From NCBI GenBank assembly GCA_965178125.1, contig OZ237741.1, positions 1,364,001 to 1,428,000 on the forward strand: DNA of 64,000 nt, read 5' to 3'. Made by a program: the position numbers and the translations under genes. Shown here piece by piece: positions 1 through 64,000 of the stretch (the stretch's first letter is position 1; the number at the start of each line of letters is the position of its first letter). The stretch is from Bilabrum cf. latius. Its lineage: Eukaryota. The notes under the pieces were generated by a model. It saw nothing but the letters and a program-made list of their open reading frames with translations, did no database searches and had not been told where the DNA came from.

Positions 1-432
1 TATAGGAAGTTCATGAGCAAAGTGCACCCGGACCTGTTCACAAAGTACCCAGAGTTGCAAGAGACGAACGAAACTAGCCTACAAAGCCTGAACGAGGTAC
101 TGCAAGGCGCCAAGAGTGGAGTCGTGGACTCCGTTCTCAAGCCAACGAGGATGGATTTGGATTTCTTCGTCCGCACAGACAACGACCACGAGTTTCTCAA
201 AGTGCCCCTCCGGCTGCGCCTGGCCGGCGGCTACTGCAAGCGCCAGGCCGGAGAGTAGATGGGCGCGCTGTTCCACAAGTGTGGACTACCCAGAGTGTTT
301 GACTGGGGCAAGGATTACTGGTATCAGCGCATCCGGCCCGCCGCCCCGGAGCGCAAGGAGGACGGCAGCGTGGACGAGGAGGCCGAGCAGAGAGCGCAGG
401 CATAGAGGGAGGCCTATCGTCAGCGCGGGTGA
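1..432 (+). CDS. DUF4460/TCAIM N-terminal-like protein, 5'-truncated by window edge
   Basis: YRKFMSKVHPDLFTKYPELQETNETSLQSLN resembles the DUF4460 'F..VHPDLF..P....N..SL..L' pattern. In-frame TAG at 256 and 403; first TGA at 430-432 (could instead be an intron donor). Confidence 0.6.
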
Positions 433-646
433 ATGGCAGCAATGCACAGCATACCAGGTATTATGGTTCTCTGACATGCACACAGAACCCACCCAGTCAG
501 CCGTTTGGATGACTTGCATCGCCCTGCACATGCACTGCCAAGCGGTGGACTATCCATCTCGCGGGGGGCCCCCCGGGCGCGTGGCCGGCACCATCACAAT
601 AGCTTCGAGCGTACTGTATTCACGCTATTGATTACCACTGCAATCC

Positions 647-2002: not shown

Positions 2003-2113
2003 GGGAGCAATTTTGAAGTCTCCAATCCATCCGTTGAGAACGGTATGTGACGAGTGCGCGTGAACGGAAATCTGCGTGAATGAAACAGGCATAATCTTGG
2101 TTTGATAGGCTAG

Positions 2114-3214: not shown

Positions 3215-3449
3215 GAGGGGCAGCGTGCGTGGGGCAGGGCTTGGATTTGCAGTGGGGGTCTAGCTAGACCTCCCCAGTCCAGCCCTTAGCCAGTCTCTTG
3301 AAATCGTGTATTTGGGACCGAGTAAAATTTTCTCTAAAGAATCCTTCTATCACTCAATGCTCAGCACATGCATTCAACTAGTAGCTCTACTGACGACTGC
3401 CACTCCACCCAACCCAGGGACTCTGTGCTTGCAGTTCACTGCACCTGCC

Positions 3450-19451: not shown

Positions 19452-20775
19452 TCACAATACTCCCTGATCTGAGCGATTTTGGGATTGCAAAAGCTGATGA
19501 AGACCAGCGACTTCCTCGCGTCTCAAAACTGAGACGTCTGGCCCTTCTGGTCGCTCCCAGCTCGTCTCTTTCGATACGGCGTGATAAAAGTAGGATCCAT
19601 GCCCTGATCCAGATGCAGAAGGTACCTCGACCCATAGCTGGGTTCCAGGTCTCGGTAGCAGAGCCTCTGTTGGCGTGGGCAATGCTACAGCAGCTGCCTT
19701 GCTCTGCATAATCAGCTTCTTCGCCGCTTGCGCCGCAGCTTGCTGCATCCTCGATGACCTCGCTTGTCTTGGGCCGGCATCTGAACCTCGTGCTTGGCTG
19801 CTGGCGCTGGGACTGGCTGCCGCTCCACCATGCAGCAGTGCAGCCCTTGAGGCATCTGCCAGGCCACCGGCCCCCATTGCTGGCGAGGCGACCGGCGGTG
19901 TTTGCGCTGGCGAAACACGAGATGCCAGCATGGATTTTTCCTGGGCCTGCCTCGCGGCACTTGCCTCTGCGATGGCCCCCAGCAAGCTCGTCTCCCGCGC
20001 GGCATCCACCGCAGCTGAGCCCCCATGCAGCTGCCGCGCCCGCCTCACCACTTCGGCTGCACCCTAAAGGGCTGCCGTGCGGTCCATGCCCATGCCCATG
20101 CCCATGCCTATGCCCATGCCCATGTCCGGCTCTACCTTCCTGCCAGTGGCCTTGCCGCCTTGCCCGCTCACTCTTCCCGTTCCCCTCCCCCTCACCCCCA
20201 CCTGCGCCTCCACCGCGGCCACCTCCCTCTCCCTCCTCCTGAGAGCCTCCTCCTCCCGCCGCAGCGCCTGCACGGCCCCCTGCAGCGCCTCTTGCTGCCT
20301 CTTCAGGGCCTCTGCCTGCCGATGGGCCTGATCCTGCGCCCGCAGTGCCTCTCGCGCCAGCACCGCAGCGTCATCCTCGGACACCTTGACTTCACCTGGA
20401 CCGCTGCCCCTGGGGCTTGCCCAGCCCTCCCCCTTCCTTTCCTCCTCCTCCTTGTCCTTATCCTGCTCGGCCTGCACCTTTGTGCTCGAGTTCCAAGGGA
20501 CCCGAGGGGAGGCGTGCTTGCCGCTGCCAGCGGGCTGGAAATGCCTGCCTCGTCGGGCTCGCACCGGCCTAGTGCGAGGCGAGGATCGAGCCCTCGCCGA
20601 GTTCGAGGGCGAGGACGCAAGCAGCACGTCGCTGGCCCTGGCAGGGCTCGGGAGGCCGATCCCCGCGGCCCGCAGCCGCCTCCGGACGGCCCTAGCCGCT
20701 GCTCCCCGGGGCACCTTGGCTTCTTCATCCGTGGGGACGGGAAGCGGACCTGTGTGTGCCTGTGCCTGAGCCTGA

Positions 20776-20811
<36 letters not shown>

Positions 20812-24321: not shown

Positions 24322-25157
24322 ATGGCGCTGGAATGGATGCAATCCGTTTCTCCAACTGCTACTTTGGACGATATGGCAGGGATAGGCAGCCATATGATGA
24401 TGCGCCGCATTGCAAAAGAGCTTGGCGCTGTCTAGAAGGATGGAAGCACGGGTGTTACAGCGCACGCCGCATCTGAGGGTGACCTCACCCACCTCATCTG
24501 CTCGATCGAAGGTACGTGTCGCTATTTGCCGCCCGTGATCGAGTTGATTGGCTGTGTCCCAATTCTTTCATGTTTGCTGGGTTCTTCTTCAACTCGAAAC
24601 GCGCAGGTCCCAAAGACACTGTCTGTAAGTTCTGCTGGCACTGAATGTCGGCATCCCTGCGAATGCATCAGTCCGTGCTTACTGTCCATCCACGAACTTT
24701 TATTCGCATTTATGTTGCAGATGAAGAGGGCTTGTTCTTCATTGATTGCAAGTTCCCCTCAGAGTACCCCATGAAGCCACCAATTATGAAATTCCTGTCG
24801 CACGTCTGGCACCCCAACATCTCCAGTGCTACCGGGGCGATCTGTGTCGACATCCTGAAAGACGAGTGGTCCCCGGCAATTACTCTAATGAAAACGCTGC
24901 AGAGTCTGCAGGCATTGCTGTGCGCTCCTGAGCCCAAGGACCCCCAAGACGCAGTTGTCGCAAAGCAGTACATGGAGGACCAGGAGGCCTTCGCCGCCAA
25001 GGCCAAGGAGTGGACCAAGAAGTACGCCGGGCCCCTGGACGAGAAGGTAGACTAGCTGGCCAGCATGGGCTTCGACAAGGACAAGTCTAGGGCGGCGCTC
25101 ATGCAGGCGGGCGGGGACGTGGAGCAGGCGGCGGGCGCACTGCTTGCGGCTGCGTGA
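24322..25157 (+). CDS. UBE2K: Ubiquitin-conjugating enzyme E2 with C-terminal UBA (UBE2K/Ubc1 type)
   Basis: 'RRIAKELGAV*KD', 'GPKDTVYEEG', 'YPMKPP', 'WHPNISSATGAICVDILKDEWSPA', 'PEPKDPQDAVVA'; UBA 'KVD*LASMGF'. Introns at 24512-24606 and 24625-24720 (18-nt exon). TAGs at 24433 and 25053. Ends TGA. The start may be a downstream ATG (24373 or later). Confidence 0.9.
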
Positions 25158-25818
25158 GGTGGACGGGCAGACGCAAAGAGGGAGGCATGGTCTTGGCAGA
25201 GGAAGGTCTTGGCAGAGGAAGTAGGTCGTTATGTGTCACTGCCCTGGGTGACGCACGAGGTCTCCTTGAAATGGCAAAGAAGCCAGACGGCGCTGCTCGG
25301 CAGGTGCCACTCTCTCTCGGCTGCCGCTGCTGCTCTACTGCATCGTGCAGGCATCTAGGCCTGAGGTAGGGCCTAGGCATGACCACGCACGTGCCTGTAT
25401 CCTCCGGACAAGCGCCGGACGCAAGCGGCCTGGATGCCAACCGCCAAAGGAGAGGGGAGGCTTTGGCAGGCAGTCTGCCTGCATCCAGGATTGGGCGAGC
25501 GATGGGGGTGCTGGGCAAATAGCGCAAGCCCGTGCTTCCGGTAGTACGGGTCTCAGACAGCCGCATGGCGATGCGAGGTTGCCCAGTGGCAGTGGCAGTG
25601 CCACCCGTTCCTTCCCCAGCGAGGCATTGCAAGCAAGTCGACTGGGTAACGGGGAAAATGCCGACTGACCAGGCAGTGGCCTGGCAGTGTTGGCTCATTC
25701 CACTTTCAGACTTTCAGACAGATTGAACCCAATAAGGATGATACGAAATAGGTTTCTCTGTGCTCAACGGCATGCCAGTGGTGGGTTAGTCGCCATCCCA
25801 AGGACAAGCTCTTCCAGG

Positions 25819-26521
25819 TCACTTCACCGATAGTTCCTTTACAATTTCCTTTACCTTCGCCTCATACTTCTTGGGCTCGTATTTCGCTAGTGAGTGGGCT
25901 CCACTGTTAGCTGGGTCATCCAGGTTTGGTGTCGAGAGTAGAGTCTGCACTCCCTACAGAATAGACTTCATGTTGATGCCTGGGGCCCAACCCTTTTCAT
26001 CAAGAATGCTCAGGCAAACCTTCCCGCTCGGATACACTGCAGGGGCATGATATTTGAATACAACCGAAGCGACTTGGGCCAGAGAGGATCTACCTACGCT
26101 TGCCAATCGTCGCAAGACAGACATTCAACTCACCGTTAGGGTGGAACAAGGGAGGAACGAAAGACACTTTCGGCGGTTTCGTCGGGTATTCAGTATCAAA
26201 TTCTATTTTCAAGGTGAACTGGGCTCCTTCCCAAATTGTCTGCGAAGTTGTGGCAATACTGGTGGAATCCAAATAAGACCCTTGTCAAATGTGTGGCAGC
26301 TGCCGCGCAGTACGCACACAAGGGGGCCACAATTAAAGTTCACGCACCCGTGGAGATCCAGGGATCTTAGCCTCCCAGTTCATCCAGTCTGTCCCTCCTG
26401 AAGCCGTCTTCATGGGCTTTGCAACCATGCCATACGGGTGGTCCTTCTTCCAGGCCTTTCTCTCGAGAACAAGCCGCTCTCTCGCCATACTTGAAGCTGC
26501 TGATCCGGCAGCTGCTGCCAT
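25819..26521 (-). CDS. UBC9: SUMO-conjugating enzyme Ubc9
   Basis: 'RLVLERKAWKKDHPYG', 'WEAKIPG', 'YPTKPPK', 'LFHPNVYPSGKVCLSIL'. Introns at 26240-26347 and 26037-26133. TAG at 25954. Ends TGA. Confidence 0.88.
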
Positions 26522-36116: not shown

Positions 36117-39100
36117 TCAAGAGGCTCCAATTTTGAGGCCTGCACAAGCCAACTCCACCAATTGAGCTGCCTCCGGTGTACTCGCACTCTTCAGGCACTC
36201 CACAGCTGCCTCGCGCACCTAGGGTGAGGGCGGCTGCGGGCCACCCCCCGGGCTGCTCCTTGTCACATCCCGCATTGGTGTCCCAGCGGCGATGGCCCCA
36301 ATCAATCGCAGCGGGGCGAACTCCCACCCCTTGTCCCCTTGACCTCCATCACCATCCGCCTCTTCCTCTCCCAGCGCCGAGGCAGCGGCAGACGCAACTG
36401 CGAGCCTTGCCCTCGCTGCAGTCGCGCTGGCCCCTCCTTTTTCGCTTGCCTCTGATTGTGCCCGTGCCTATGCCTCGCTTGCTTCTTCCACCTCCTTGCG
36501 AGCCTCTGCGCCTACATTCACAGGCCGAGACAGCGCCTCCCAGCCCCCGGGCACTGTCGCCATCTACTCTAACGAGGCGATAGCACGCAGCTGCAGGCCA
36601 GGCGCACCGCTGGCCAGCAGCTCGGTCATAGCAGGCACGCCCCCGCCCTCGAGCAAACGAGCCGCGGCCTCCTCGTCACACGAAGCAGCTGTCGCCAAGG
36701 CACCCGCCGCCGCCTCTGCAGTCTTGAGGTCGGCCCCGTCCCACCCACTTTCGCTGTCGTGCGGCACTCTGGCGTGGGCTTGTGCTGTCGACGGTGATGA
36801 TGACCCGCTGCTGCCCGCCCCAGATGCAGGCCCTTTATCCCCCTCCCCTTGCCCAATCGAAGCTTGGGGGTCCGTCTCTCCGAATGCCTTGGCCATGGCC
36901 AGCCACAGCTTGAGGTACTGCCCGGTGACCGCCTCGATCACTGCCGGGTGGAAGGACATGTTGCACAGCGCCTCGGTGCCCGCCCGCCTCAGCAGCCGGT
37001 GGTCCTCGAAGACGAGGGCCTGTAGCGCCGATACCCCGCCGCTGCCCACGACCCTCTCGGTCGCATCCTCGCCCATGGAAGACACGTTGGTCAGCGCCAC
37101 CGCCGCCTCGAATTGCTGCATCCCGTCCCTGCCCCGGCACACGAACAGCAGGGGAGGCACTGCATCCATGACCTGGCTCTCGGGAAGCAGGTTCGGGTTG
37201 CAGGCCATCAGCAGCAGCGCGAGGCAGTGCGATGCCGCCTGCCTCCCCGCCAGCGAGTTGCCGGACAGCTCCGACGACAGCGTGTTGAGCAGGGGCAGCG
37301 CCCCCGACTGCAGCAGCTCGGCCCTGCTCCAGCGCCCCCGGACCGCCACCTTCTCCAGCACGGTGGAGATGGCCTGCAGCACGCCCGCCCCTGGCCCCCG
37401 GTTCCTCTCCTCCTGCTGCCTCCTCAAGTGCTCGTCTGCCTCGCTCAGCGGCTGCCACTGAGAGCGCGCCAGCCCAAAGAGCGGGTTCACTGCGCCGCTG
37501 TCCCGGACTGCTTGGATAGACCCGCCCTGCGCCCCCCTGCCCAGCGACTCCATAGCCAGCGAGTGGATGCCCCTCGCCGCCTGCGCCAGCGCGTGCAGCA
37601 TGGGGATCACCTTGAAGGAGATAGACGCGTGCTCGGCAGCAGACCCATCCACCCTTGCCCCGATGCCGAGGAGGAGTCTCACTCTGCGATCGACCTCATC
37701 CTTCGGGTCCGGGTCAGGGGCAGCGGCCTGCTGCGACAGCGTCAGTCGCTGGAACTCTTCCCACTGCTTGACCGAGATGTCTTTGTCTGCCAGTGCCTGC
37801 AGCCTCTCTTCCTCTTCGCTCCTCACGATGGACAGCACGATGAAGCACGCGCCCAGCGCGATGGGTCCCCACTCCTGCTCCAGCGCCCCCGATGTGGCAT
37901 GGCTCCGCCCGGCAGAACCCCCCTCGCTGGTCTCGTGCTGGGACCGGAGGGCCCGGGACTGCTCCTCGGCTGCCCTGCTCGCCAGTCGCAGCACGGCCCC
38001 GATCGTGTGGGGGTCCTCCACGATCCGCTTTTTGATGGGCACCTTGTTGCTGATGCACGCCAGAGCCTCCATGCTGCGAGAGGCCGTCCGGAGAGCAACA
38101 CGGCTGCCAGTCGAACGCGCCAGCTTGCTACTGTCCTCCTCCCTGGTGCTGCCCGCTCCACTGCTGGGCGCGGCACTAGAGCCGGACCCCGAGTCCGCCA
38201 GAGCATCATCGGCAAGCACGAGGGCATCAGCCACGCCCTCGTACAGTTCCATGATCGCGCGGTCGTCTGCTTCCTTCATGGCTGCTTCCCTGGAAGCTCG
38301 CCGGGAAGACGATCCAGCAGACGAGGCGGCCGCTCCCGCGGCGGACAATCCCGAGCCCTTGCCCCCTCCCTCCTCCGCCTCTTCCGCTGCCTTGGCCTCC
38401 TCGCCAGTCATCGGCTTGGCCAGGTCCACGCCTGCGCCAGCGGGACCTGCCGCTGCCTTGCGCTGGGCCGCTGCGGTGGCCAAAGTCTTGGCGATTGACA
38501 CTGCCGCCGCTGCTCGTACCCCCGAGTGCTCCGACTTGGCCAGCACCCCCAGCATGTCGTACACCTCGGCAGACATGAGGGCGCGGCCCGCATCGTCCGC
38601 GCACATGTGTCCAATTACGTCTGCCACGACCTCCTTCCAGGCATCGCTCGGGCTGAGGGCCAGGGAACACACGGCGGGCAGCACGCCGGTCTCCTCGAGC
38701 ATCGACAGTGCGGCCTGCCTGTCAACCAAAAAGGCTGCGCCGATGACCACGGCAGCCCGCGCGCACAGATCGTAGCGCTCCTCGGGGGCGCGCATCTTGG
38801 CAATTCTCCACGCCTGCTCCTGGACCCGAGCTCGCCTCTCCTCCTCTGCCTGCTCGCGCTTGGCCTTGTCCTACTGGTGCAACTGCAGCGCTTCGGCGGG
38901 GGAGCGAGGCACCACTTCGCCGCCTGCTGCCCCACCCGCAGCCCCATCTGTCTTGCTCTCTGCCTCGGCGGCTGCTTCTGTAAGCCCCCCTGATGCTGTG
39001 TCCTCCCCTCGCCCCAGCTCCACGACCAGACCCTTCATGTGAGCCCGCAGTGCAGCCGCCAGGTCCTTGGACGCAATCTGTGCATTGGGGTCGTGCCTCT

Positions 39101-40817
39101 CAAGCATCCTGCGCCCGCGCACGCTGTCCACGTCAGAGGCGTCCGGCAGCTGCTGCGGCTGCTACTGGCCCGTCTTGCCATCTGCCCGTCCGCCATCGCT
39201 CGACCGCAGCTTTGCGACAGCCCTCGCCACGTCAGCCCTCGACCGTGCCAGCAGCAGTGGCATGTAATCATCCGGCAGCTCCCGCGTCCTGCTGCGCCGC
39301 TCGACGATCCTGGCCAGTGCTGAACGGGCCGCCAGTCGCACGTCCTCGGTCTGACCGCTGGCCGCATGCCGCACCACCGCCCGCACCAGACCGTACTGCT
39401 CGCAGGCATCGGCCCCCATCCTAGTGCATGCGATCCTGCCGACGGCGCGGAGGGCAGCCACAAATACGTGGTCCAGCTCCAAGACATCCCTATCTTTCTC
39501 TACCTTGCCCTCTGACACAGGCACTGGCACTGGCACCATCCCCACGGATCGACTCAGGACTTCGTCCGCAGCGGCGGCCGCTCGCCGCAGTACCGCCCCC
39601 ACCGTCTCTAGCCCGATACTTCCGCCCGCCGCCGACTCTGCCTTGGACGCACCACCGCGCCCAGCCCCCCTGCTGGCCATCCGCAGCGCCTCTGCCCTAT
39701 GCTTGAGCAAAAGGGCCTGCCCCTACTACGCGGCCTCGCTCAGCAGCGTGACCCTGCTGCTCTCGTGGTCTCGAGCCGCCCACGAGCAGCCCGGCGGCAG
39801 CTGCCAGGCCTTCCCAGTGTGACTAGCCTCAGGCGTGCTGGCTCCGCCGCTGGCTCCCGATGAGGCAGAGGAGGAAGCCGCTGGCCTCGCCTCCCACACG
39901 GCAGACCCGAGGGGCCCAGCCAGAGCCTCCACCACGGACTGGGCGGACGGGTCACCACTGCGGAGGGCCTGGGCTAGCACGCCCACGCATGGTGCAGGGA
40001 CGACTGGCCTCGAGAATCTTCCTTTGTATGCTCCCTTGCCTGCTGCAGGGGGCAGTTTTGAGCTGTCCAGGGCAGCCTCGGCATCGGCAGGAGCGGTCGC
40101 AAAGGTGCCGAGCGGCTTGGGTGCGGCCGGGGCTGTATCCAGCAAGCGCCGCCCCCCGTCTGCAGACGCAAACTCGGAACAAGCGATTTCAGGCTGGGTG
40201 CGCAGCAAATGCACAAGCATGCTGAGGCCCTCCTGCCCGTCCTTGGCGCTTGGTGCCGTCCCCACAAAGCCCTTCTGTACCAGCTCAAGGGCGCCCTTCA
40301 CGCTAACCTTTGAAGCCACGCTTCGAGACTAGTCGTATACCTACTTTGCTAAGGCTGCAAGCTCTGTATTCCCGGGGTTCTCTTTGGCTAGCTGTCCCGC
40401 CTCAACAGTAGCATCGTGCATCTTGCCTAGCCCGACCAGTGCCTGCAGCGTGTGGAATAATTCGGACGATCAGATCATGTGAGCTAGTAAATCAAAGTCA
40501 ACGTGTTCGAATACGATCTGCTGCTGCTAAGTCAATGTAAACCTCACTTGAACTCGCCTGAAGCGAGCTTTTAATCTGGATGGATCGACCAAGAGTACAA
40601 GGTCGCAGTCCTCAATGCAAGATTCATGTTTACCGGCTCGGAGGTACGCTGCTGCTCTGTTTAGACGAATTGATAGCTCCAGCTCGAGCACATCATCGGC
40701 ACTACCATCGCTATTGGTACAAATCTCCAAAGCCTTGGAGTAGTGCAATACGGCATTGCTTGCATCTCCTGCTCTAAAGCGCTCGTCGCCAGCCTTTTTC
40801 TCGATGGCAGCACTCAT
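36117..40817 (-). CDS. UNC45: UNC-45-like TPR + armadillo (UCS) myosin co-chaperone
   Basis: N-terminal TPRs ('KKAGDERFRAGD..AVLHYSKAL', 'LNRAAAYL', 'KARFRR') and UCS motifs 'QQFEAAVALTNVSS' and 'FEDHRLLRRAGTEALCNM'. Intron at 40443-40547. About 9 in-frame TAGs join the same-frame ORFs. Ends TGA. Confidence 0.8.
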
Positions 40818-43543: not shown

Positions 43544-43601
<58 letters not shown>

Positions 43602-44737: not shown

Positions 44738-46147
44738 TCACACTCCAGCACCAGATGCAGCAGGCCCACCGCTGGAGTGGGCAACAGGCAAACCACCAGG
44801 CTCGGCTGCACCTTTCGATGGAGGATCCCGCGAACACTCAGCCTCGTACCCAACCGCACCCGATCCAGAGACATACCGCACGGTAGACGCTCTGCCGGTC
44901 ACCCCAGGACCAGCACCAGCCCCATCGCCAGCGCGTGCACCCCCGGATCCGATGCCTCCGAACCTGCAGCTTACCCGGTACTCCCTGGCCTTGATCAACT
45001 ATCGGATGCGGGGGAACAGCCCAAGCGCTGTCTTGGTGGTGGCAGCCGCCACCTCCTCCACGCCAATGCCCTTGATCGCTGCGAGTCCGGCCAGCGCGAT
45101 GGACGTGTTTTCGGGGGCATTCGTCTCTTTGCCATCTGTCGGGTGCAGCGCTGGACTGTCTGTCTCGAGGCACAGGGCATCCATTGGCAGCAGTCGCGCC
45201 ATCTTTTGCAGGCACCTATCTCTGCCCAGGCAGGCCGCCACGGAGAACTTGAGGCCCAGGGACGCGCCCCTCACTGCGTGCTTGGCTTTGCCGTCGAATG
45301 CGTGCAGCAGGGCACGACACTTGGGTGCGGGGTGTGGGGTTGTTGTGTCTGTCCCACCATGACTGGCAGTGGCAGCGGGTGCCTTGCTCTCTACCCTGGG
45401 GTCCTGCAGGAGCATGTCGATGGCGTAGTGGCCTGCCTGCCGGCTGTGTACGTTGACAGCTAGGCCGGCACTCACGGCGTGATCTATCTAGGCTGAGAAG
45501 ACCCGTGCTTGATTGCTCTTGACCTCCACTGCATCCACTCTGGACCGAGCTGGACCAAGGGAAGGCACGCAGGTTGCAGCCTGCATTGAGCCACGTGCGG
45601 GCTGGTCCGCAAGCTCGCCAGTTCCAGTTGCTGATTTGGCGGTGCTAGTAGTCTATATGGCGCACTTCAACGTTCGCGGGCAGTAGTCCAGCCCGCACTC
45701 GCCGACGCCAACCACCATTTCAGCGTGCAGCTGCAGCATACCCATGACCTCGTCCAGTTCGGCAGCCGTAGGGTGTGTCCAGCCCGGTTGTACTGGGTGC
45801 AATCCAATGCATGGCGCCATTATACTCCACTCAATAGGATCGTTCGCGGACAAAACGCCCCCAGGCTTGCGCTCGGCAGCGAAGTCTGGTGCAGCCGCGT
45901 CCAAGGAGGCATCGACTGTCGACTTTGAGGGTACACACCAAGCCTTCTACTGTACATCTGCCCGACCAAAAAGTTCAACTGCTTGCTTTGCATTTTCGAC
46001 AACAGCTACGAGCGCACCAACGCTGTGGGCTGCAGCAGAAGAAAGACTGACGTCCCAATCCCCCATGGCTGGATCCACAAGGTGGCAGTGCGAGTCAATG
46101 ATTGTACTTGAATCCCATACCCACGGCTCCTTTTGTACTCTTGCCAT
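44738..46147 (-). CDS. TatD-family deoxyribonuclease (TATDN3-like)
   Basis: 'IDSHCHL', 'CIGLHP', 'VGVGECGLDY', 'NQARVFSA*I', 'VNVHSR', 'LLHAFDG', 'LCLETDSP'. TAGs at 45947, 45653, 45488 and 44999. First TGA at 44738. Confidence 0.88.
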
Positions 46148-48934: not shown

Positions 48935-50560
<1,626 letters not shown>

Positions 50561-51141: not shown

Positions 51142-54100
51142 ATGGTGACCGTCAAGGCGAAAGCAGTGGCAGTCCGAGGGATTTTCCTCGTAACGGTAGT
51201 TGCGATCGTGTTAGCCGCACCCATCGCACGGGCCTAGATCAGCGAGCTTTCGTGCTCCGCTACATTCGAAGATCTTGCGGTACCGACCATTGGGAGCGAA
51301 GTTGAGGTTCGTTGCCCCGGAGAGTGCCCCGCGGCCGAAGCGGATACCCTGGGTGGGTGTGGCCCTGTCTACAGCCAGGGTCCCGTTTGCTCCGGAGCTG
51401 CCCTCCAACTGTTTGGAAGCGCGTTCATGCGCCTTCGAAGATCATTTTTAATCCGCCGAGTTGACTTGTCAGGGCAGCTGGAAGGCTGCACAGCGCACAG
51501 TGTGCAGAGCTCCTCGGACACTTCACCATCTCAGGCGTTTGAGATCGTGGACGTCGAACGAAGTAAGCAAGGTTGTCAGATAAAATCGTAATTCCGTTTT
51601 ATTCGGCCTTGGATCGCCTAAAGCGCGGTTCACTGACAAAAGCCAAACCCGCGAATTCGCATGGATATTGATCGCGTTCTTGCTCTATCTTGGGGACTCT
51701 ACATTCCATCCCTTACTGTCGACTTCGCAGTCACGATTTTGAACTGTGATGCACGTATGAATCAGACCGAGCTTAGTTCCAGCAACCCAGCCGGATCGAG
51801 CCAGGCCTACGTGTGTCCCGCTAGCTGCCCGGCGAGCATCACCCCCGTGGTAGAGGGCTGCAGCACCTACTCGGATCGATCCTCTGTGTGCGCCGCTGCG
51901 GCGCATGATTTTGGTGGATTTGGCAGCTCGGGCGCTTTCGTGGCCACCACGCGGGCTGGACTCCCGTCCTACGGGGGTTAGTGCTCGAGGAACGGCGTAT
52001 CACCTCAGGAGGGCATTGCCAGTGCCCTAGCCTTTGAGCTGGACAACGCGTGGACGCTGCCTGCGCGCGTACCGTCCGTGGACGTGCAACGCATCTCGGG
52101 AGAGGAGAGCAAGGTCCGTGTGAGCGCCCGAGTGCCCTCCTCGGGTGCAGCCGTGTCCTACATGCAGATCGAGGCCGAGCCCCTCTGCTTCCAGGACGAA
52201 TTCGAGGGGGCCACAGCCGACTTACAGGACAGGCACTGGACCTGGCACGCCCCGGCATGCCAGACAAACGCGCAGACATCCGGCAGCCGCTGTTTTCATT
52301 CCACCTCGCGCGCCTCGGGGGTGCTCACCATCAAGGCGGGGCCGGGGCTGCAAGTCTACCACAACGACGACTTCGCACGACGCCGAGGCAACGCACCCAT
52401 GCTCAAGAGACCGGAGGCATTTGAGCACTGGCACGACTGGAGCGTGGAGACGTACATCGATCCGACTAGTGGCAACGACGGTGGGCGGGTGGTGTCCAAC
52501 ATATGGGGCGGCATCATGATCCTGGACGCCGAGAGGAACGACGCACCCATCATCACATGCTTCATCGCGGTCTGGAGGAACAACGGCATCCGCGCGTGTA
52601 GGATCATGAATTCCCAAGCATCGTCTATCGCCACCGGTCCCGTCCCTACGAATCGCCGAGGATGGATCCGTATATACTATAGCGCTGCCGCCCAGCGCTT
52701 CTCCTTCCAGTCTAAGGCTTCCATTAACGCGGACTGGGCCGAGTTTGGGACCCGTAATGCCGAATCTGCTGGTAACAACGGGCGTATCAACCGGTATCGT
52801 CCGGCGCTGTTCGTGAGAAACTGGAACGGGGGCACTCTTGCCTCTGCTAACACCGTGTACGTGCGCTTCGACCATTTCAGGACCCATGTGGCAGGTGCGT
52901 GTGGGGAAGAAGGCGTCAAGAATACGCTTGTGCACGTCCTGCCCGTCCCCCCTGGCACCCAGCCTGGCGCTTTGCTGCAGATGGACGTAACTGCCCCCGA
53001 GCGGGTACCCCACACATACCGAGTGGCAGCAGTGGGCGAGGTGGGCGTGGCAGGGCCGCTGTCCGAGATACCCACTGCTGGTGATGCGCCTAGCCGCCAG
53101 ATTGGCTTTCCCCTCAGCTAGGCCGCCATTTCGAACCGAGGCCTCCGGTTTTGGTGGGACTTCACGAGGTTCAGGGGCCGCCTTACGGACGGTATCGGCA
53201 GCCCTGGTCTTCGACGGATTCAAAACGAGTTTGGCACCACGCACGCCTACCAAGGCGACCCAAACCGACGGCCAAAGCTGCGTACGGGGCTGCTCGGGCC
53301 CAACGCGGGCATCGTGACCACGAGTAGCGCGCAATTTCTCATCTCTGCACATCAGGACAACACCGTCATCAACGGACCCAGGAATACGTTCTTTTTGATT
53401 GCTCGGTTCCGCAACCCAGGGGCCTGGACATGGATCTTTTCCAAAGGGAACGGAGCGGGTGCTGGTGACCAGGCGTACGGAGCCCTTCTCGGGGCGGGAT
53501 AGCATTACGCGTTCAGGTTCTCCGGGAGGAGGGCTCCTCAGTACGGGCTAACCTCCAATGACGGAACCATCCGCCAAACGTCTTTCTCCAACAATCAGAT
53601 GGTGGCTCTCATCGAGTACAGGACCGATTATTCGTTCTGCATCCACTGCCGCTCAATGTGGATGCGTCTAAACGAGCGCGGTGCGAGCATTGCTGACGGA
53701 TTTGGTGCATCCCCCATCTTTCCTGGCGGCCCACGCAACAGCTACAAAGCCATGCAGCACATCAGCGGGCCCATGTCACCCGCTGGACGATTCTTCAACG
53801 TGCAGCCGACCAACACGGACCCGTTCCATTTCCTCGCCAATGAAGCGGGGCAGGCCACGCCCCAGGCCGAGGTGCTCGAGTTCATTCACTTTAAGGGCGG
53901 GAACGCAAACGTGTGGGGGGCGGATTACACTGCAATGAAGCAGTACTTTGACGACAAATACGGGCGTCCTTCCCGCTGCAGCGTCCCAGAGCTGATGCTG
54001 GCGAGCAACTGGTCCTCACATGCGTCCTGGTCCGACTGCAGCTCGCGCACCAACCCTGAAGGTGGGTAGCGATGCCCGATGCGCTGCGTTCGCGAAGATC

Positions 54101-57100
54101 ACACCATCATCGCAGGTACTCCCGACGCTTTGCGCTGCGAATTCGGGGGCTGGATGGGGTCCATGCCGTTCTGTGGCCCAACCTGCCCGGCCCTGTCGAG
54201 AGGCCAGTCGAACGCAGCTACATGCACCGAGGACCTGTGGCACGATGATTTCGTCCTTCACTTTAGGCAAGGGGCTACCAATCCGGCTGCCATCGCTGCA
54301 CGCGGTGCGGCTGCCTTCGAGGGGTACCGCGTACTCCCCCACATGCCAGACGATTTCCGCAGGCAGCTGGCTACCCTCGGTTCTGATGCCAACGAGACGG
54401 AGCCGCACCATCGGGAGTTTCTTGAGCTGAACGGAGCTCAGAGAGTCGCGCAGCATGGCCTCAAGGAACTTGCCGAAGACGTGATCTTGACCCCGTTGTA
54501 GCCGCAGTACACCGGTCGCACCACGGGAACTGAGCCCATCCGTGTAGAGGCCGAGATGCGAGTGGTGAGCGGGCACGGGGGTGTGGTGTGGCACTTACAG
54601 GACGGGGGTTTCTCGGACGAGATGCTGGCGGGCAGCTACTAGAACTACTACCGATTCAAGTTCTCGTCTGCTGCGCGCTCTGGGCTTGCCGTGCACTCGA
54701 TCGAGAGGGTGAGCAGACCCACGCAGCGGGACAGGTTTCCTACAACTCGCGTGCTGGCCTCCACCTCGGGGGTCCTGGACAATCCGGGTGGCTGGCACCA
54801 TGTGCAGGTGATTTTGTCTTACGGCATGGCCGAGTCCGGGGGTCCGGGTTCGATCCGCATGGAGGCCTTCATCGACGGGAGGCACATCCTGACCGCTGAC
54901 GAGGGGCCGGCAGCCAACCCGCTCCCGTCCACTGCAAGCACAGGCGTAGCTGCCAGCCAGGGCAACGTGAGAGTGCGCTCCTTCACGGTGGCAAGGGAGT
55001 GCCCCGAGGGGGGCATCATCAACGACGCCCCGCGAGGAGAGAGGGTCCGCATGAGCTGCGCGCCCGGCTTTTCCGGTGTGGGCTCCGCCGCGCGAACTTG
55101 CAATGTGTACGGTGAGTGGACAGGAGAGCCGTTTGTGTGCCGGACGGATCCACCCGTGTTCGGCAACACCACCCGATACGTGGACGAGCACAGTCCTGTT
55201 GAAACGCTGGTTGGCCCGCCGCTCGAGGCACGGTCGCCCCTTCCCGTGACGTACGAGCTGTTCGAGCCTGGCAATGACAACGCGTTCGGGATCGATCCGT
55301 GCACCGGTCAGATCTACGTGCGGAACAACGTGCTTGACTTCGAGCGGACGCCCTCGTACCGGCTCCGGATCTTGGCAAAGGCGAATAATGACGCCTTTGC
55401 CGTGAGCGAAGGCTTCGTGACGGTGCGGCTGAACAACATCAACGACCCTCCAAGGTTTCCCGGGGGGTAGACGCTGGTGCTAGAGGAGAACGCACCGGCT
55501 GGCACCTTGTCCAACTAGGCAGTGGTTGCGACAGACGATGAGGGCAGCCCCCTGCTATTCAACGTGACCGTAGTGGGTTCCCTTGGCTCTGACGCCGCCC
55601 TCGGGCCTCTACTGGGAATGCAGCGAGTGAACGATACCGCCGCCCAGCTGCAGGTGCTCCGAGAAGACGCGCTAGGTCTGCTGGACTTCGAGTCGAGGGA
55701 GACGATCCTTCTCATTGTGCGAGCTTACGACGCCCAGGACCACTCTTTGTTCAGCGATGGACTTGTCACGCTCTATCTGCTCGATGGTGCCGATCCGCCG
55801 AGGATCTTGCCGTCCCAGTTTATCACGATCGACGAGGACACCCTGCAGGCGGGGCCCTTCCCGCTGGCTCTGTCTACCGCGGTGCAGGTATACGATGAAG
55901 ACGCGCAGAGCTCCGGGGGCACCTCTGGCTCAGGTACTAACACGACATCCGGTGGAGCTGGCGGTCAGACTGTGGGAAGCGTGCGCCTGTTCTTTGACCA
56001 GGGCACTGCCGCTGCTTCCACGTTTGGTGGGTTGTACACCGATGGAACCACCAGGCTGCAAGGCCCGTCGGTCTTCAGTCTCAACAGCTCCTCCTACCTC
56101 ATCTCGTTCACGCAAGCACCGGTGATCAGCAGCAATGACGAGGTCTTAGTCCGCGACGACAGCACGGACACCACGTACATCGCCCGCGGGGCCTACAACC
56201 TCCAGCTGCGTGCCAGGGACGGGGACGGTTTGGACTCCAGCCCGCGCAATATCACGGTGCTTGTGACGGTAAACACGACGGGTGTGGGCGGTGCGTCGGT
56301 GGATCGCGTTGACGCAGATGGGCCCGAAGGCTTGCTGGCGACGGATGGCTCGAGCACTATCGTGATCAGCGGCGTGGGCTTGGAGAGCATAACTGGGTCC
56401 ATCGCCGTGGCGTATGGTCCGTACACAGCCACGAGCTGCGCCACCGTGCGAGAAGCCGTGCCTGATTCCGAGGACATTGTCTCGATCCAGTGCCAGTCGG
56501 TGCCAGGCCACGGAAAGGATCACCGCCTGCACATCGTGGCGGAGGGCCGGGTACTCCGTGCCCCCTCGCTGCTGCTGCTGAGCTACCAGCCCCCTGCCCT
56601 GGATGGTGTGACCGGCGTCAGGGCGAACGACACGCTGGGCGTGGGCGGGCTGGATGTGTCCCGGTTGCTTACCGCGGGTGGACAGGCTGTCTTCTTGCAA
56701 GGCTCGGGATTTTCCAGCAACTCCACTGCTGTTCGTGCCTTTTATGGCCCGCAGAACCCAGCCTGGATCGATCCAGAAGGTGACGAGGTCGATCGAGAGG
56801 ACGAGTCGTTCGACGCCACGGACCCAGTCCAGAACCCCAGGTACCTCTACGAAACGCTCGAGGCAGACATCGTGTCGGTGTCTGACACCGAGATTGCCGT
56901 GCGCACCGCTGCCGGGATTGGAACCAATCTTGGCTGGAAGGTAGTTGTGGATGGTCAGGTGGCGTACGGCTCCGAGCAGGCTGAAGTCGGCTACGGGTTA
57001 GCTATCGTAACGAGTCTTGAGCCTACCTCGAATCTGGCAGCCTCTCGCTTTGAGCTGCCGACGCGCGGAAGTGCCGGAGTCTCTAGTCGCCGCCTCAATG

Positions 57101-60100
57101 TCCTCGGTCACAACTTCGGTCCAGTGTCGTGGCTGGGCCAGGACGTGCAGGTTCAGATTCGCTACGGGCCGACGCCCGACGGCAAGCTTTACCAGGCCCC
57201 TTGCAGCAAGCCCTCGGCTTCTGGCAACTAGCCGCATATGGAGGTGTCGTGCGCGGTGGCAGAGGGTGTGGGCACCAACTTGACAGTTGCGGTTGGTATT
57301 AACGGCCGCTGGTCTGTGCCAGAGATGGGCAGCGATCTCCTCGTGCTCGGGGCCACGATTCCAGACGACGGCAGCGCGTCGCCTCCTGCACCGCTGCAGC
57401 ATGAGGCGCTGCAGATCGCCCTAGAGGATTCCTTGGCAGCTGCTGATGGCGTCGGTGCTGTCTCTGCAGACGCCGCCTCCCTCGGCTACAGGCCCCCGAG
57501 CGTGTCTGCTGTTGAAGGGGAGAGCATCCAGGAAGCCGTGACGCCCGGTGGCCAGATCTTTCGCGTGCTCGGCCAGGACTTTGGCCCTCCCGACACATCA
57601 GGGCAATCAGTAGACTGGGTGCGTTATGGCGGGGGAGGCCTCGCAGCGGGCGAAGCGTATGCTGCCGGAGGTCGTCTCGCAGGCATGGGCGGCATGGTGC
57701 GTGGAGACGGGGGCGCGCTCTCTGGTGCTCTGCAGTCCATGGACTGGTTTGCCGCGCAAGACTGTGAAGTCCGTTCCCACGAAGAGCTCAGGTGCTAGAC
57801 CTCGGAGGGCACCGGCAGAGACCATGCCCTGGCGGTGAGCGTCGGCGGGTAGGCCTCAAGCGTGCTTGGACAGCCTGTGATCTCGTACCAGCCGCCATCC
57901 GTCGCTGCATTTGAGGGACCGGGGGCAGAGGACGCGGCTACGGTCGGGAGTGAGACTGTCATTATCCGAGGGCGTAACCTAGGCCCATCTTCTCGGTTCG
58001 CAGCCGTCGCGAGGCTGTTCTACGAAGTCGAAATCAGCGAGGACGGTCAGGGCGGCGGCGCTAGGCGCACGATTCTGTTCGAGGCAGAGTCTTGCAGCAT
58101 GACTACAGGAGCCGAAGAGCACGTGGCCGTGACTTGTCAGACGGCCGAAGGAGCGGGTGAGGCTCTGGAGTGGATTGTCAGCGTGGATGGACAGAACAGC
58201 TCCTACCCGGTGACTAGCTACCAGCAGCCGTCCATTGCCAGCGTCGGCGCCGTTAGTGACATGTCTGCCATCGAGAGCGCGCCGACTGATGGTGGAACCA
58301 GAGTTCGCATACTGGGCAGCAACTTTGGGCCAGCGACCCTCTCGTTTATGCTGCAGCGGGTCATATACGGTACGCGCGAAGCAATCGCGCGAGACCTTGG
58401 CGATTCATCCCAGTCGGGTGGAAGCAGTGCCGGTGCCGGGGACAGTTTCCCTGGGTACGTGTACGAGGCCACGAACATTGAGCTGGTTTCTCACTCCGAA
58501 ATACGGGCTACTATGGTGCCCGGCGTAGGTAGGGATCTGGTGTTTGTCGTCACGGTGGCAGACCAATCGTCCCTGCCCTCTGAAGTAGGCGTGGGCTCGG
58601 TGTCGTATGCCCGCCCCACCGTCGAGTCGATCACTCCAGCTTCGTGGTTCCCCAACACAATCGCTGACCCCACGGCAGTCACGGTGGTAGGGCGAGATTT
58701 TGGCCTACTCCATGCGGCCTCCGATGTGGCCGTGTCCTTTGGCAACCCGGCCGACTACTCATCCCAGGGTGCTCTCATCTAGCCACGGTCCACGCGGATT
58801 CTGCAGGACGGCAGGCACCAGGTCGTCTTTGATCTCCCGGCAAGTCACGGTCTGGACCGCGCGGTGAGGATCGCAGCTTACCCCCGAGGCGTAGCCCTGG
58901 ATCGAGCAGCCGACGTGGCTGTGTTTAGTGACCCCATCGTGGATGGCCCATCTTCGTTGTTCGACTACTACGACCCGGTGCTGGACTACCTGGCGCTCAA
59001 CTCCCCCTCTCGACCCGAGGAGATTAGCTTCATCGCAAACACGTCGTCCCTTGGCTGTCCCGAGCCATCTGGCATCAACGCGTACTGCGGCCTTCGGATC
59101 CTCAGTCTATTTGGCCGAAACATGGGTACGTTTGAGCCACCGATCGCGCCGAGCATTTTCCTGTCCTTCCGTGATTTCCCGACAATTGCCATGCCAGACC
59201 AGGACCGGCTCGTGGTGCTCTCTTGGAAGGACGATGAGATTGTCTTGCTCACCAAGGCAGCCGAGGGGGGCGTGCAGGTCCAGATCAACTCGATGGGGTA
59301 CCAGGACCCGCAGGACGCTGGGACTGGACCAGCACCCCTTATGCAGCGCAGCGCCAGGTTGATCTTCTAGTCTGTAGCTCCCGACATTTCTGAGCTAAAC
59401 GGCCCCTCCGAGGTCCCCACCGTGGGAGGCGAGGACATCACCATGGAGGTGGAGAACCTCAACGTGGGGCAGCGGGTGGCGGTACTGGTGGGCACTGGTG
59501 GCAGGGAGAGAGTGTGTCGGCTGTACAGCTCCAACGGTGCATCACTGTTCAATGGAGAAGCAGATGGCGGCGTGGATGACCCCGCCACTGCTGCACTGGC
59601 GACGTCCACGGCGCAGACAACGCTGAGGTGCCAGCTTCCGGAGGGCGAGGGCTCCGCGGTGCCTGTGACTGTCTAGACGTGGACAGGGACCGACTGGAAG
59701 CGGTCCCGTGTCGGCGGAACGATTCGCTACAGCAGCCCGACAATTTTGCGAGCCTAGCTGCTCGGTGGGCCCGCTTCCGGGCTGGGGACTGCAGGAGCAG
59801 CACAGGACCCGACCCGCCCGCTGGCGTCCGAGAGCGGTGTACCCGGGGCTGGCTTGCCCACCGTGGGGGGCGTACTGAGAGTAGTAGGCGAGAACCTGGG
59901 ATTGTGTCCTACCATCCTGTTCGGCGCACACGACCCAATCCGATCATGCGATGGAAATGGCCTCCCGTTCAGTCCGCCATCCTCGCTGTCACAGCCTGGC
60001 ATACTCTCTAGGAGCCACAGTTTCATTGAGGTTCGCTTGCCGGCAGGTCATGGGGCTATGCTCAGGCTAGATGTTGACGTGGCCGGTCAGCTCCCGAGTG

Positions 60101-63100
60101 CCAATGGTGCAGGCGCTCGATTTCTTCGAGCCTCCTACGACCAAGCCACGATCCAGGACATTGGTCCTAAGCTCGCGAGCGATGGTATGCCAACCAGCGG
60201 TGGTTCTAGGATTAAATTGATCGGTCGAAACCTTGGAGCACCCGACGGCAGCGGCGGATTCGCCGGCGGGCCGCTCGTGGTGCTGGATGTTTCTGGAGGT
60301 AGTGCCAATGCCTCCTCTTCGAACGGAACCAGCGTCTCAGGCAACAACCCCCCTGCGTTGGTGGCACCAGACGGAGGGCCCCTGTACCGTGATCGCGTGG
60401 TGGAAATGAGGTCGCTGTCAGGGACAGGGGCAGCTTGGATCAGCTGCGGGGCCGTGCTCTGGGTTTCCCACGAGGAGCTCGAGTGCGTCCTCCCGGAGGG
60501 TATGGGCAAGACGGTCGATGTTCGCATCCGAGTTGGCAACGCCCCTCCTGTTGTAGTGCGAGGCGCTGCATCGTACGACCCTCCTGTTGTCAGCTCCATG
60601 GCCGTGTACCAGCCCATCCCGGGGATGGCTGCGGCGCAGATGGGCAGGGCTGGGCTACTGAGCGCGGGCGGGCCCGAGACGGTGGCATCTCCAGGAGGAG
60701 AACCACTGCAGGGCAACACAACGGGGGGCTACGTCGTGCAACTGCTCGGCGAGAACTTTGGCCGGCCCTTTGGCGCGTCAGCCGGGTCGCCGTCCCTTTG
60801 CGTGTTTCTTGCCCACGTGTACCGAGCTAGACCAGACAGCATGCCCTCGTGCGACAACCGGGAGTCGTTCCTCGGGGAGGGCGAGATCGAGGCTGCCTCG
60901 ATCTTGCACTGGTGGCATGATGAGGTCATGTTCATCGTGCCAATCGGGGCTGGCACTCGCGAGATTCGCCTGTTTGTCGCTGGCAACCTGCTGGCCGCGG
61001 ACAGGGCCGTGCTGGCCAACACCACCGCTTCGCCTGCCACCCCTGCTGTGCCATCCATGCCCGGCTTCTCGTACCGGGCCCCATGGATCGAGCCGGGCGG
61101 CTTGCGGCCGGACCGAGGGTCCACAGATGGCGGTGACTTAGTGACTGTGTTCGCACGGAACCTGCCGCCTCCCCTGCTGGAGGGTGCAGAGGCGCAGGCC
61201 GCGGCGGATGCGCTGGCTTCCGGCATGGGCGTTCCGATTTCGCTGGCGCCGTTCCTGCCAGTGGCTTGGCTGCGAGTGGATTTCTGGAAGGACTGCATCA
61301 CGAACGCAAGGACGATCGACGGGTTGTTCCCCAACGACCCACGGGTGTCCAGCTGCTACCCCCGGAGAGACGATCGCATCGACATCCGGCAGCAAGATAT
61401 GGAGTCGATCGTGTTCAACTCGGCGCCTGGCGTCGGGAAGGACCGCCACATCTATCTCACGATTGTCGAGGGCAACATGGGAGCAAACACGAGCAGTGTG
61501 AACTCTGCCCAATGGAACTACGATCCTCCTCAGATTGATGGTGCCGACCCCTCCGGTCTAGAAGTAACGGGCAATGTCGTGGATGAGATCGACCTTGTGG
61601 CTACCATGCAGGATGAGTACCAGGCAAAGTTCGTGGGTCGCAACTTCGGTTATGATGCTGACGCAGACCGACAACGCTGGACGCCGGAAGAGCGGCGGCT
61701 CGTGCTGCGTATCGGAGGGCAGGAGTGCCTGCCAAACACCACTATCCGCGCCCGTGAAACCATCCGCAGAGGGGATGGTGTCGTCGGCTTCCGGCCCACC
61801 GTGTCGTGCGTCATACCCGAGCTCTCGGTAGGGTACAAATCGATCGAAGTCGAAGCAGCGGGCTAGAACGGCACTTCCGAGGATATCCTCCTGTTCGCGT
61901 GCGACGGAGGCTTCTTCGGGGATGCCACTGAGCTTTGCCTACCATGCCCCATGGGTGCTGACTGCTTCGGGCACCTGAGACTGGTGCCACAGCTGCATGA
62001 TGATCTGATTCAGCAGCGCAACATCGAAATTCAGTAGCTGCGCGAAGCTATTGTGCAGCTTCAGGCGGACGCAGAGGGGACCACCTTAGACTCGTCTCGT
62101 CGCGCACTGCAGGACGCCGGCGGCGGATCCGACGAGCGGGACAGTGGCGAGCTGCGGTCGCCTGCCAATGCGAGAAGCCTGGGTGCGTCTCTTGACCACC
62201 CGAGGTACTTGACGGTCGACATCGACCTGGACGACGGCCCCTGGCAGCCGAAGTACTCTACCGTGCTGTTCCACCGCCCTAGGCCGCAGCCTGGTTGGTT
62301 CAACCTGAACGACACGGAGCAGCTGTCCGAATGCCCCGAGCTTTTCCGCATCGAAGATCGTGCGTAGTGCGTCGTGCCTTGTGACCCTATATGGGCGTGT
62401 ACCGGGGACAACTTCTGCGCCACAGGCTACAGAAGCGTCGGTCCCGAGTGGAGATGCAACGCCTGCGACGAGGGCTACTACCGCCGGGCTGGGGAATGCG
62501 TAGAGTGCCCCGACAATCCGTGGATCCTGATCGCAGTATTCATCATCATCATGATCTGTGGCGTGGGGTTCGTTTACTTTCTGGCCAAGTACAACATCAA
62601 CCTGGTTCTGACCACACTGGGAATGGACTTTTTCCAGGTACTCGCTTTATTCGCCCAGTCACGGGTTCCCTGGCCCCCTGTGCTGGAGGAGATCCTGCAC
62701 GTGCTGTCCGCGTTCAACCTCAACATTGAGATCACCGCACCCGAGTGCACGGTGCCCGACCTCAGCTACATGTCCAAGTGGGTGTTCATCATGATGCTGC
62801 CCGTAGCCGGTCTCGTGTGCCTCTCGCTCGTGTACTTCAGCGTGTCCGTGTACGAGCACTGCATCAAGGGCAAGACCAGGACCGAGGCATGGTACGGTCA
62901 GCACCTGAACAGGTGCATCTCCATGTTCCTCGTTGGCGGGTACATCTTGTATCTCATCCTCTCCAGGACGTCCTTTGACGTGCTCAACTGCTAGGTGAGG
63001 CGCTTGAGTTTGCTGCTGCCTGTTGCTTTGACCACTTTGTGCTTGCCTGTGTACCGTGACTCTATCGCGTCGTTCGAAATTCCCGTATCTCGCAGCCGAC

Positions 63101-64000
63101 GACCCCTCCAGATGGCCGCCTGTACCTCCAGGTTGTGTTCGAGCCGTGCAGCAAGCCCGGCGGGGTGCATCGCACGCTTCTTGGCCCCGCCATTATCACC
63201 ATGCTGGTGTACGGCTTGGGGTTCCCCGCGATCGTGTTCTACGTGCTGTACACCAACCATGACCTCATCATGGAGGACCAGCTGCTGCGTGCCATGAGGA
63301 TGGGCGAGGACACTGTGACAAACCCTCACGCGCACACGATTCGCAGGAGGTACTCTAAGATGTACTTCGCATTCAAGCCCATCGGTTACCGCATCTACTG
63401 GATGCTGGCGCTGATTGCTCGCAAGTTCTTCTTCGCGCTGACGTCACTGCTGTTCGTGCGCAACGCGGTGATGCAGCTGTCCATGTCTCTCCTCGTGATG
63501 TTCGCCGCCTTCGCGGCTCAGACGAGGTTCCACCCTTTCATGTCACCGGACGAGATGGAGGACACGCTTAGGCAGCACAAGCGGCTGTCATTCGACCCCA
63601 GCTCGCCCCACTCCAAGCTGGCAGCAACCATCAAGTCGGTGGTGCAGAAGGGCAGGAAGCGGGCCACGTACGGACAGGGCTTCCAGAGGCTGACCGAGTC
63701 ACCCAACCTGCTCGTGCAGTTCGGTGGCACAGTGATGGGGGCCGCCATTAACTACAACACCATCGAGTCCGTGCTGCTAGGATCTGCCGTGCTGGTCAAC
63801 CTGAGCGGCATTATGTTCAGCTCGGGCCAGCTTAACACGGACGAGACGGGTGAGTACTATGCTGGGTACAGGGACACTCTCATCGCGCTGACTCTGGTGA
63901 TTATTTTCGGCACACTGATCTACTTCTTTGCGGTGTTTGCGTACGACATCTACACGCTCTGTGCGTCGGCCCAGGAGGCAGAGGCAGGGGCCGGGAAGAG
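51142..64000 (+). CDS. Giant (>4100 aa) cell-surface multi-pass protein: signal peptide, 2 LCCL, lectin/LamG-like regions, Sushi/CCP, cadherin-like, many IPT/TIG-like repeats, Cys-rich region, multiple TM helices; 3'-truncated by window edge
   Basis: Exon 1 51142-51562 (hydrophobic signal ending ARA), intron 51563-51730, exon 2 51731-62994, intron 62995-63095. LCCL 'GCSTYSDRSSVCAAAAH'; Sushi 'CAPGF...RTCNVYGEWTGEPFVC'; cadherin 'FGIDPCTGQIYV..LDFE...NINDPPRF'; repeated 'GG..V.I.G.NFG'; TM segments from about 62520. Twenty in-frame TAGs and no TAA or TGA. Confidence 0.85.

Follow-up and report, generated by a model that had tools for sequence, protein, structure and literature searches.

In-frame UAG codons are very probably read as glutamine in the nuclear genome of a likely bicosoecid

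The 64,000-nucleotide stretch of DNA presented above (hereafter the window; all coordinates are positions within it) contains a giant gene whose main exon is crossed by many in-frame TAG codons. We asked how UAG is read in this genome. The giant gene encodes a product of more than 4,190 amino acids, with two LCCL-like domains, a Sushi domain, a cadherin domain, 12 or more IPT/TIG repeats, a Cys-rich part, and six or more membrane helices. GT-AG introns, a U2 small nuclear RNA (snRNA) gene, and genes for UBC9, UBE2K, UNC-45, Tubby, CFAP77, and TTL identify the window as eukaryotic (Table 1).

The second exon of the giant gene is open in a single frame only if TAG is a sense codon. The exon (51731..62994, forward strand, 11,264 nt; frame from 51733) comprises 3,754 codons, of which 19 are TAG and none are TAA or TGA. 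The same frame has 108 CAG and 19 CAA codons for glutamine (Gln), and the remaining five frames have 24-106 TAA plus TGA codons apiece. At the rate of these other frames, the probability of finding no TAA or TGA is ~1e-28. These counts bear out a preliminary description of the locus, which had reported an 11.3-kb exon with 19 TAGs and no TAA or TGA, in one frame interrupted by TAG alone; the repeat motifs that it quoted were all located as described. It had also argued that random decay should create TAA and TGA as well. We find that equal C-to-T decay of CAG, CAA, and CGA would be expected to yield ~3 TAA and ~7 TGA, and none are present (P = 8e-5; Fisher p = 0.001). A 20th TAG lies in the first exon at 51235 (residue 32), directly after the signal peptide. 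With 20 TAGs in one frame, simple arithmetic requires readthrough of ~97% per TAG for half of the ribosomes to finish, and near-cognate leakiness is thus insufficient.

Spliced sequences from public runs retain every TAG of the giant gene. Positions 50000-64000 were compared with public sequencing runs, four of the 14 listed (X5, X6, X8, and X10). X5 is labelled “RNA? (probably DNA)”, and X5 and X8 are taken to be RNA on account of their spliced joints; contigs from the runs drop rare variants and carry no strand or expression level. Exons 1 and 2 are covered end to end by X5 contigs 10, 12, 13, and 14, which keep all 20 TAGs, with 0 differences and 0 gaps. Their joints connect 51562 to 51731 and 62994 to 63096, exactly as predicted for both introns, and X8 is also spliced at intron 2. 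Contig 18 of X6, which comes from another study, is unspliced and spans 11 TAGs over 8,449 nt with 0 differences from the window. Identical TAGs are found in runs of three studies (X5, X6, and X8). The preliminary description had asked whether the TAGs might lie in small in-frame introns, or the locus might be untranscribed. We find splicing in the X5 contigs only at the two flanking GT-AG introns, and the contigs spliced at both introns are evidence of transcription.

A second, divergent transcript is present in X5. Between 55728 and 63108, the giant-gene transcript exists in this run in two forms: one matches the window exactly, and the other is about 83-88% alike; the X10 sequence is about 90-93% alike to the window. 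As 12-17% of positions differ and states are shared with X10, the second X5 transcript is that of another species or a paralog. This matters for the explanation that the code is standard and that the TAGs are removed by U-to-C editing or as tiny in-frame introns, since the divergent transcript has C at several TAG sites. However, that transcript belongs to another species or paralog, while the window-identical X5 contigs, spliced at the real introns, retain every TAG without a gap. Thus, the TAGs are neither in small introns nor edited, and a standard code restored in this way is highly improbable.

Close relatives carry Gln codons at the positions of window TAGs. We examined 40 listed differences between the window and the second X5 transcript or X10, 39 of them in the exon and touching 38 codons; 1,339 further differences lie beyond those listed. 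Among these 38 codons, four change from TAG to CAG (57796, 58780, 59674, and 61864), 31 are synonymous, and three are non-synonymous. At TAG 62992, the divergent spliced transcript reads CAA (QPTTP against stop-PTTP). All five visible changes at TAG sites in close relatives thus lead to Gln codons (four CAG and one CAA).

The same comparisons bear on whether the gene is a decaying pseudogene, or its TAGs are damage or base-calling errors (e.g., deamination at methylated CAG). Such an origin would agree with TAG being one C-to-T step from CAG, and with an excess of T/A in the window over X10 where the two differ (T>C 256 vs C>T 159). However, the TAGs recur in independent runs and in spliced transcripts, TAA and TGA are absent, and synonymous changes far outnumber non-synonymous ones among those listed. 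Furthermore, TAG occurs in the housekeeping genes for UBC9 and glutathione reductase, and one TAG is shared in place with a well-separated species (L001, described below). Decay or error is an exceedingly improbable source of these codons.

Conserved alignment columns that contain TAG are Gln columns. The preliminary description held that the internal repeats of the giant protein identify TAG as Gln. This is overstated, as the motifs had been quoted selectively. It is borne out for TAG 57850, whose column in a hidden Markov model (HMM) of the repeats has Gln in 4/6 other window repeats and 96/143 family repeats, and which matches Gln at 8/11 well-aligned homolog positions. The column of TAG 57796, in contrast, has Gln in only 3/11 window repeats and 15/181 overall. 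The repeat-HMM columns of TAGs 57229, 58780, and 59674 are variable. Taken alone, the internal repeats suggest Gln and fall short of proof. The decisive support for TAG as Gln, with TAA and TGA as stops, is from outside data: orthologs carry CAG or CAA where the window has TAG, and TAGs of other genes fall in conserved Gln columns. TAG 45490 in a TatD gene falls within a conserved F-x-x-Q-I motif, with Gln in all three of the PDB alignments that cover the site (five shown). One TAG of L001 occupies a column in which the window has CAG and 44/44 of the other aligned homologs have Gln. Of the columns in which a TAG occurs, the three with the highest conservation are all Gln columns.

Several observations weigh against reading UAG as Gln, and some of them would favor a different residue. 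Most TAGs fall in variable columns. A pooled Codetta-like score over 11 TAG columns, using distant homologs, gives Ala 3.5 and Gln 3.3; the same score decoded 58/61 sense codons correctly. At TAG 22565 of the TTL gene, the 10 closest homologs examined, L001 among them, all have Glu, the UBC9 TAG aligns with Leu/Ile/Val in 5/5 alignments shown, and two glutathione reductase TAG sites are mostly Gly/Ala in homologs. Across 119 glutathione reductase homologs, the TAG sites are uninformative (two columns variable and two unaligned). For the giant exon, the state of relatives is seen at 5/19 TAGs among the differences listed, and TAGs may be partially edited, as contigs drop rare variants. No tRNA gene was detected with ARAGORN in the window, and none in L001 either. 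These alignments could be accommodated if TAG encoded some other residue (Glu, Leu, Tyr, or pyrrolysine), and nuclear codes with UAG as Leu and UAG as Glu do exist (PMC11687900; statements on cited work refer to the portions of each text that were available). However, the visible substitutions lead to Gln codons in 5/5 cases, and the most conserved TAG columns point the same way. A residue other than Gln is thus very unlikely.

TAG recoding is genome-wide and not confined to the giant exon. In 20 coding segments (12,714 codons), which were delimited by hand, are free of TAA and TGA by construction, and may in some cases contain in-frame introns, we counted 59 TAG, 397 CAG, and 70 CAA codons, such that TAG makes up about 11% of Gln codons. 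In-frame TAGs are present in 12/15 genes other than the giant gene. The GC content at third codon positions is lower in the surroundings of TAG than in those of CAG (0.69 vs 0.75, p = 0.001), which fits a synonymous choice between the two codons. Among 14 gene ends, 13 are TGA and one is TAA, the sole evidence for TAA as a stop being this one gene. Where gene ends are anchored by homology, 7/7 are TGA and 0/7 are TAG.

The gene ends also bear on a variant in which UAG is ambiguous, read as Gln inside genes and as a terminator near their 3′ ends. Ambiguous stop/sense codes occur in karyorelict ciliates and Blastocrithidia. In the alignment of the TatD gene, human TatDN3 ends about four residues after TAG 45001, and the window gene adds an unconserved tail of 87 codons after this TAG. 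The DUF4460 gene has a TAG 9 codons ahead of its TGA, past the end of the ortholog on contig L003. Against this, three residues after TAG 45001 still align with the human protein, and the homology-anchored ends, although a small sample, use TGA throughout. We consider an ambiguous UAG unlikely.

Thus, UAG is very likely read as Gln in all genes of this nuclear genome, with UAA and UGA kept as stops, which corresponds to the behavior of NCBI table 15. TAG would be a minor Gln synonym, interchanging with CAG through a single C/T change. Following PMC5304391, we predict that UAG is decoded by a cognate tRNA-Gln whose CUA anticodon arose from that of tRNA-Gln(CUG) and could not pair with UAA. In parallel, eRF1 would no longer terminate efficiently at UAG, presumably through weakened recognition of a third-position G in the stop codon. 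Less certainly, the code change may have arisen after the lineage split from Cafeteria.

A second species shows the same TAG-only pattern. L001 (Ga0136560_1015630), a divergent metagenome contig and one of 47 loci, carries a TTL ortholog that is 79% identical to that of the window in the protein core. Its coding region (L001:2-2374) has 791 codons, with 10 TAG, 9 CAA, and no TAA or TGA. One of these TAGs is shared in place with window TAG 22793, and another stands where the window has CAG (22835). The code is thus common to two or more species that are well separated. L001 further has TAGs in a tandem repeat and within runs of the dipeptide G-Q. P0017, a 98% identical glutathione reductase, has its start past the last window TAG, which hints at a further recoded relative. 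Outside the pair formed by the window and L001, relatives have no in-frame TAG among 72 Gln codons (L002), 28 (L011), and 64 (L003), the last count being less telling as L003 is also without CAA. When JGI metagenomes were scanned with the full-length exon protein, 0 of 94 pattern matches were confirmed as relatives, and a scan of viral contigs with the TTL alignment yielded 0 of 41.

The host is likely a bicosoecid stramenopile near the standard-code genus Cafeteria, to judge from protein matches and gene order, with weak support from trees. L003, a Cafeteria-like contig, has the same four-gene block as the start of the window, with TTL adjoining, and both trees place it with Cafeteria. Among 2,356 matches to the P5C dehydrogenase (P5CDH), the cluster of Cafeteria roenbergensis FNF29_07484 ranks first (64%), and the top TTL matches include C. 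roenbergensis FNF29_07488, four locus tags from its P5CDH. In the TTL tree (52 rows, 139-residue core), the window and L001 are grouped (100/99) within a 14-row clade (100/98) that contains Cafeteria. Two results weigh against this placement: the TTL tree supports a sister relationship with Cafeteria weakly (90/51), and the P5CDH tree (48 rows chosen from the matches) does not group the window with Cafeteria, although such grouping is not rejected by the approximately unbiased (AU) test (p-AU 0.43).

Cafeteria burkhardae (roenbergensis), L002, and L003 provide the best protein matches to the window and resemble it in gene order and in their GC-rich, low-complexity proteins. In contrast to the window, the Cafeteria-type relatives lack in-frame TAG in homologous frames. 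Protein identity between the window and Cafeteria-type sequences is 29-64%, and thus the window does not derive from C. burkhardae (roenbergensis) itself. For Cafeteria, the available text of PMC6972860 mentions a non-standard code for the mitochondrion only. The proteins P0139, P0269, and P0284 carry the label Symbiodinium sp. KB8 but either match Cafeteria-type sequences exactly or cluster with them, indicating bicosoecid contamination of the Symbiodinium sp. KB8 assembly. L003 also carries an intron-length tRNA-Tyr(GTA) between its DUF4460 and TTL genes (L003:8636-8728).

The window has the features of a UAG-only code: UAG is present in expressed, spliced, and conserved genes, UAG matches Gln, and UAA and UGA end genes. 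Such a code, with UAG as Gln, is known from Iotanema spirale, Hartmannula sinica, Trochilia petrani, and Protocruzia tuzeti (PMC11687900). In I. spirale (Fornicata), nuclear UAG is Gln, UAA and UGA are stops, and a T32G change is reported in eRF1 (PMC5304391). The window shares with it the codon meaning, the uncoupling of UAG from UAA, and the predicted mechanism (tRNA-Gln CUA). However, I. spirale is an unrelated metamonad, whereas the host of the window is bicosoecid-like, has 63% GC, and comes with public DNA and spliced RNA runs and with standard-code relatives that have genomes. H. sinica, T. petrani, and P. tuzeti have the same code, with independent recent origins beside standard-code relatives, according to the available descriptions.

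The code is also distinct in its setting from those of ciliates and viruses. Ciliates are the usual home of code changes, whereas the window has no ciliate signal and has its gene order in common with a Cafeteria-like contig. In the ciliate-type table 6, UAA and UAG are both Gln. Its UAG is read as in the window, but the window has no in-frame TAA in the 3,754 codons of the giant exon, and one gene ends in TAA. We rejected table 6 on the basis of 0 TAA against 19 CAA in the exon and 0 against 9 in L001. NCBI table 15, code-15 phages (PMC9523058), and code-15 giant-virus metagenome-assembled genomes (PMC13524828) have TAG as Gln and TAA and TGA as stops, as far as the available texts describe them and as in the window. 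Those code-15 cases are viral, whereas the window is part of a nuclear genome with spliceosomal introns and a U2 snRNA gene.

No stramenopile nuclear UAG case was found in the literature, with subscription journals and supplements (including the Codetta tables of PMC12220804) outside the scope of the search. The available portions of PMC5304391, PMC12220804, PMC13768787, PMC10120064, PMC11412368, PMC13524828, PMC12574857, PMC12153298, PMC10767852, PMC6972860, and bioRxiv 10.64898/2026.06.25.734631 contain no such case. Likewise, those of PMC11687900 mention neither bicosoecids, Cafeteria, nor stramenopiles. The bioRxiv text describes a neglected field. According to the last of these, coverage of bicosoecid genomics is poor, and the word “codon” is absent from the available part of bioRxiv 10.64898/2026.06.25.734631. 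The window adds a real and well-supported instance to a rare known code, probably the first in stramenopiles. On balance, we slightly favor a broader description, in which it marks the first stramenopile nuclear code deviation: an unreported, GC-rich bicosoecid clade with UAG alone reassigned to Gln, beside standard-code Cafeteria, and a possible host lineage for code-15 giant viruses. Under that description, the clade would include the organisms of the window and of L001, and probably the relatives seen as P0017 and in X5 and X10.

UAA and UAG are nearly always reassigned jointly, and UAG-only nuclear codes are known from few lineages; the tRNA and release-factor changes behind them have mostly been predicted and not shown (PMC5304391 and PMC11687900, available portions). 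A GC-rich stramenopile case with a well-sequenced standard-code relative would permit a before/after comparison of tRNA-Gln and eRF1. If the reading is true, amber-suppression engineering, which seeks a eukaryotic eRF1 that ignores UAG, would also find a natural source in this lineage. Standard-code gene callers fragment the genes of this lineage (P0293 and P0017 are such fragments), and the code is therefore hidden in databases. As bicosoecids host giant viruses and virophages, the lineage may be of a type that hosts viruses whose genomes are annotated with code 15.

The giant protein belongs to a family widespread in protists. Fourteen full-length relatives (P0003-P0016; 3,100-6,200 amino acids) align across the TAGs at 21-41% identity. 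These are giant cadherin, IPT/TIG, Cys-rich, multi-pass proteins with the same domain order as the window protein, and they are 28-41% identical to it in the membrane region. The window protein has all the components of this type (a signal peptide, cadherin, tandem IPT/TIG repeats, a Cys-rich segment, and C-terminal helices), but differs in having fewer cadherin repeats and two N-terminal LCCL domains. The records of P0003-P0016 give no known function for any of them. Exon 3 is similar to TRP-like clusters, in which 12-24% of members carry PF06011; this similarity is a lead only. From its domain content, we infer that the protein acts as a cell-surface adhesion or sensor protein. The giant exon, which encodes the greater part of this protein, reports on the code well and is not the cause of the recoding.

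Table 1. Features of the giant gene and of other annotated parts of the window.
Feature	Position	Strand	Evidence or remark
Four-gene block: DUF4460 (+), ARM-repeat (-), CFAP77 (+), P5C dehydrogenase (-)	1..5322		Order and orientation as in L003
TTL-family gene, 8 in-frame TAG	19452..23705	-	
Two ubiquitin-fold E2 genes: UBE2K-like (+, 2 TAG), UBC9 (-, 1 TAG in last exon)	24397..26488		Both end in TGA
UNC-45-like gene, 9 in-frame TAG in exon, several within Gln runs	36117..40442	-	
TatDN3-like gene, 4 in-frame TAG	44738..46147	-	Conserved Gln at TAG 45490
Glutathione reductase gene, 4 in-frame TAG, ends in TGA	48935..50482	-	50000-50575 covered without differences in X5
Giant gene, exon 1: ATG, hydrophobic signal peptide, first LCCL-like domain, TAG at 51235	51142..51562	+	Gene model; X5 contig 10, no differences
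Intron 1, 168 nt, GT..AG, phase 1	51563..51730	+	51562-to-51731 joint in X5 spliced contig
Exon 2	51731..62994	+	Tiled by X5 contigs 10, 12, 13, 14: 0 other letters, 0 gaps
TAGs of exon 2 (19)	51979, 53119, 53500, 54067, 54499, 54640, 55468, 55516, 57229, 57796, 57850, 58780, 59368, 59674, 59755, 61864, 62035, 62365, 62992	+	Frame scan
LCCL domain in exon 2	about 51739-52005	+	
Sushi domain in exon 2	55021-55140	+	
Cadherin domain in exon 2	55246-55395	+	Plus a second one recognised by eye
IPT/TIG repeats in exon 2, at least 12	about 56329-61890	+	
TAG in conserved G-Q motif of IPT/TIG repeat	57850..57852	+	
Cys-rich segment in exon 2, then first membrane helices	helices from about 62524	+	
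TAG as final codon of exon 2 (TAG, then GT of intron 2)	62992..62994	+	
Intron 2, 101 nt, GT..AG, phase 0	62995..63095	+	Removed at joints in X5 and X8; retained in X6 contig 18
Exon 3: no TAG among 301 codons; encodes multi-pass membrane domain and is still open at the window end	63096..64000	+	

Other parts of the window differ in their TAG content. All four glutathione reductase TAGs lie within the first 135 of 515 codons, and 5′ gene ends are AT-richer than 3′ parts, with TAG concentrated there (48935-50482, 36117-40442, and 24397-24510). A 2,194-codon frame on the forward strand (26607-33191) is open only if TAG is Gln; it has 7 TAGs and no Pfam match. Three further long forward frames, at 42557-44677, 46112-48859, and 9695-11116, contain 8, 7, and 5 TAGs, respectively, and have no informative Pfam match. 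In contrast, a divergent DEAD-box helicase gene with an RGG run (6745-8832, reverse strand) has 0 TAG among 20 Gln codons, and the P5CDH gene has 0 among 28, which together suggest TAG avoidance in some genes. No rRNA was found in the window. The UBE2K-like and UBC9 genes are arranged tail to tail, and the former seems to hold a very short middle exon near 24608-24626. The U2 spliceosomal snRNA gene (19088-19277, reverse strand; Rfam RF00004, 68 bits) lies just downstream of the TTL gene.

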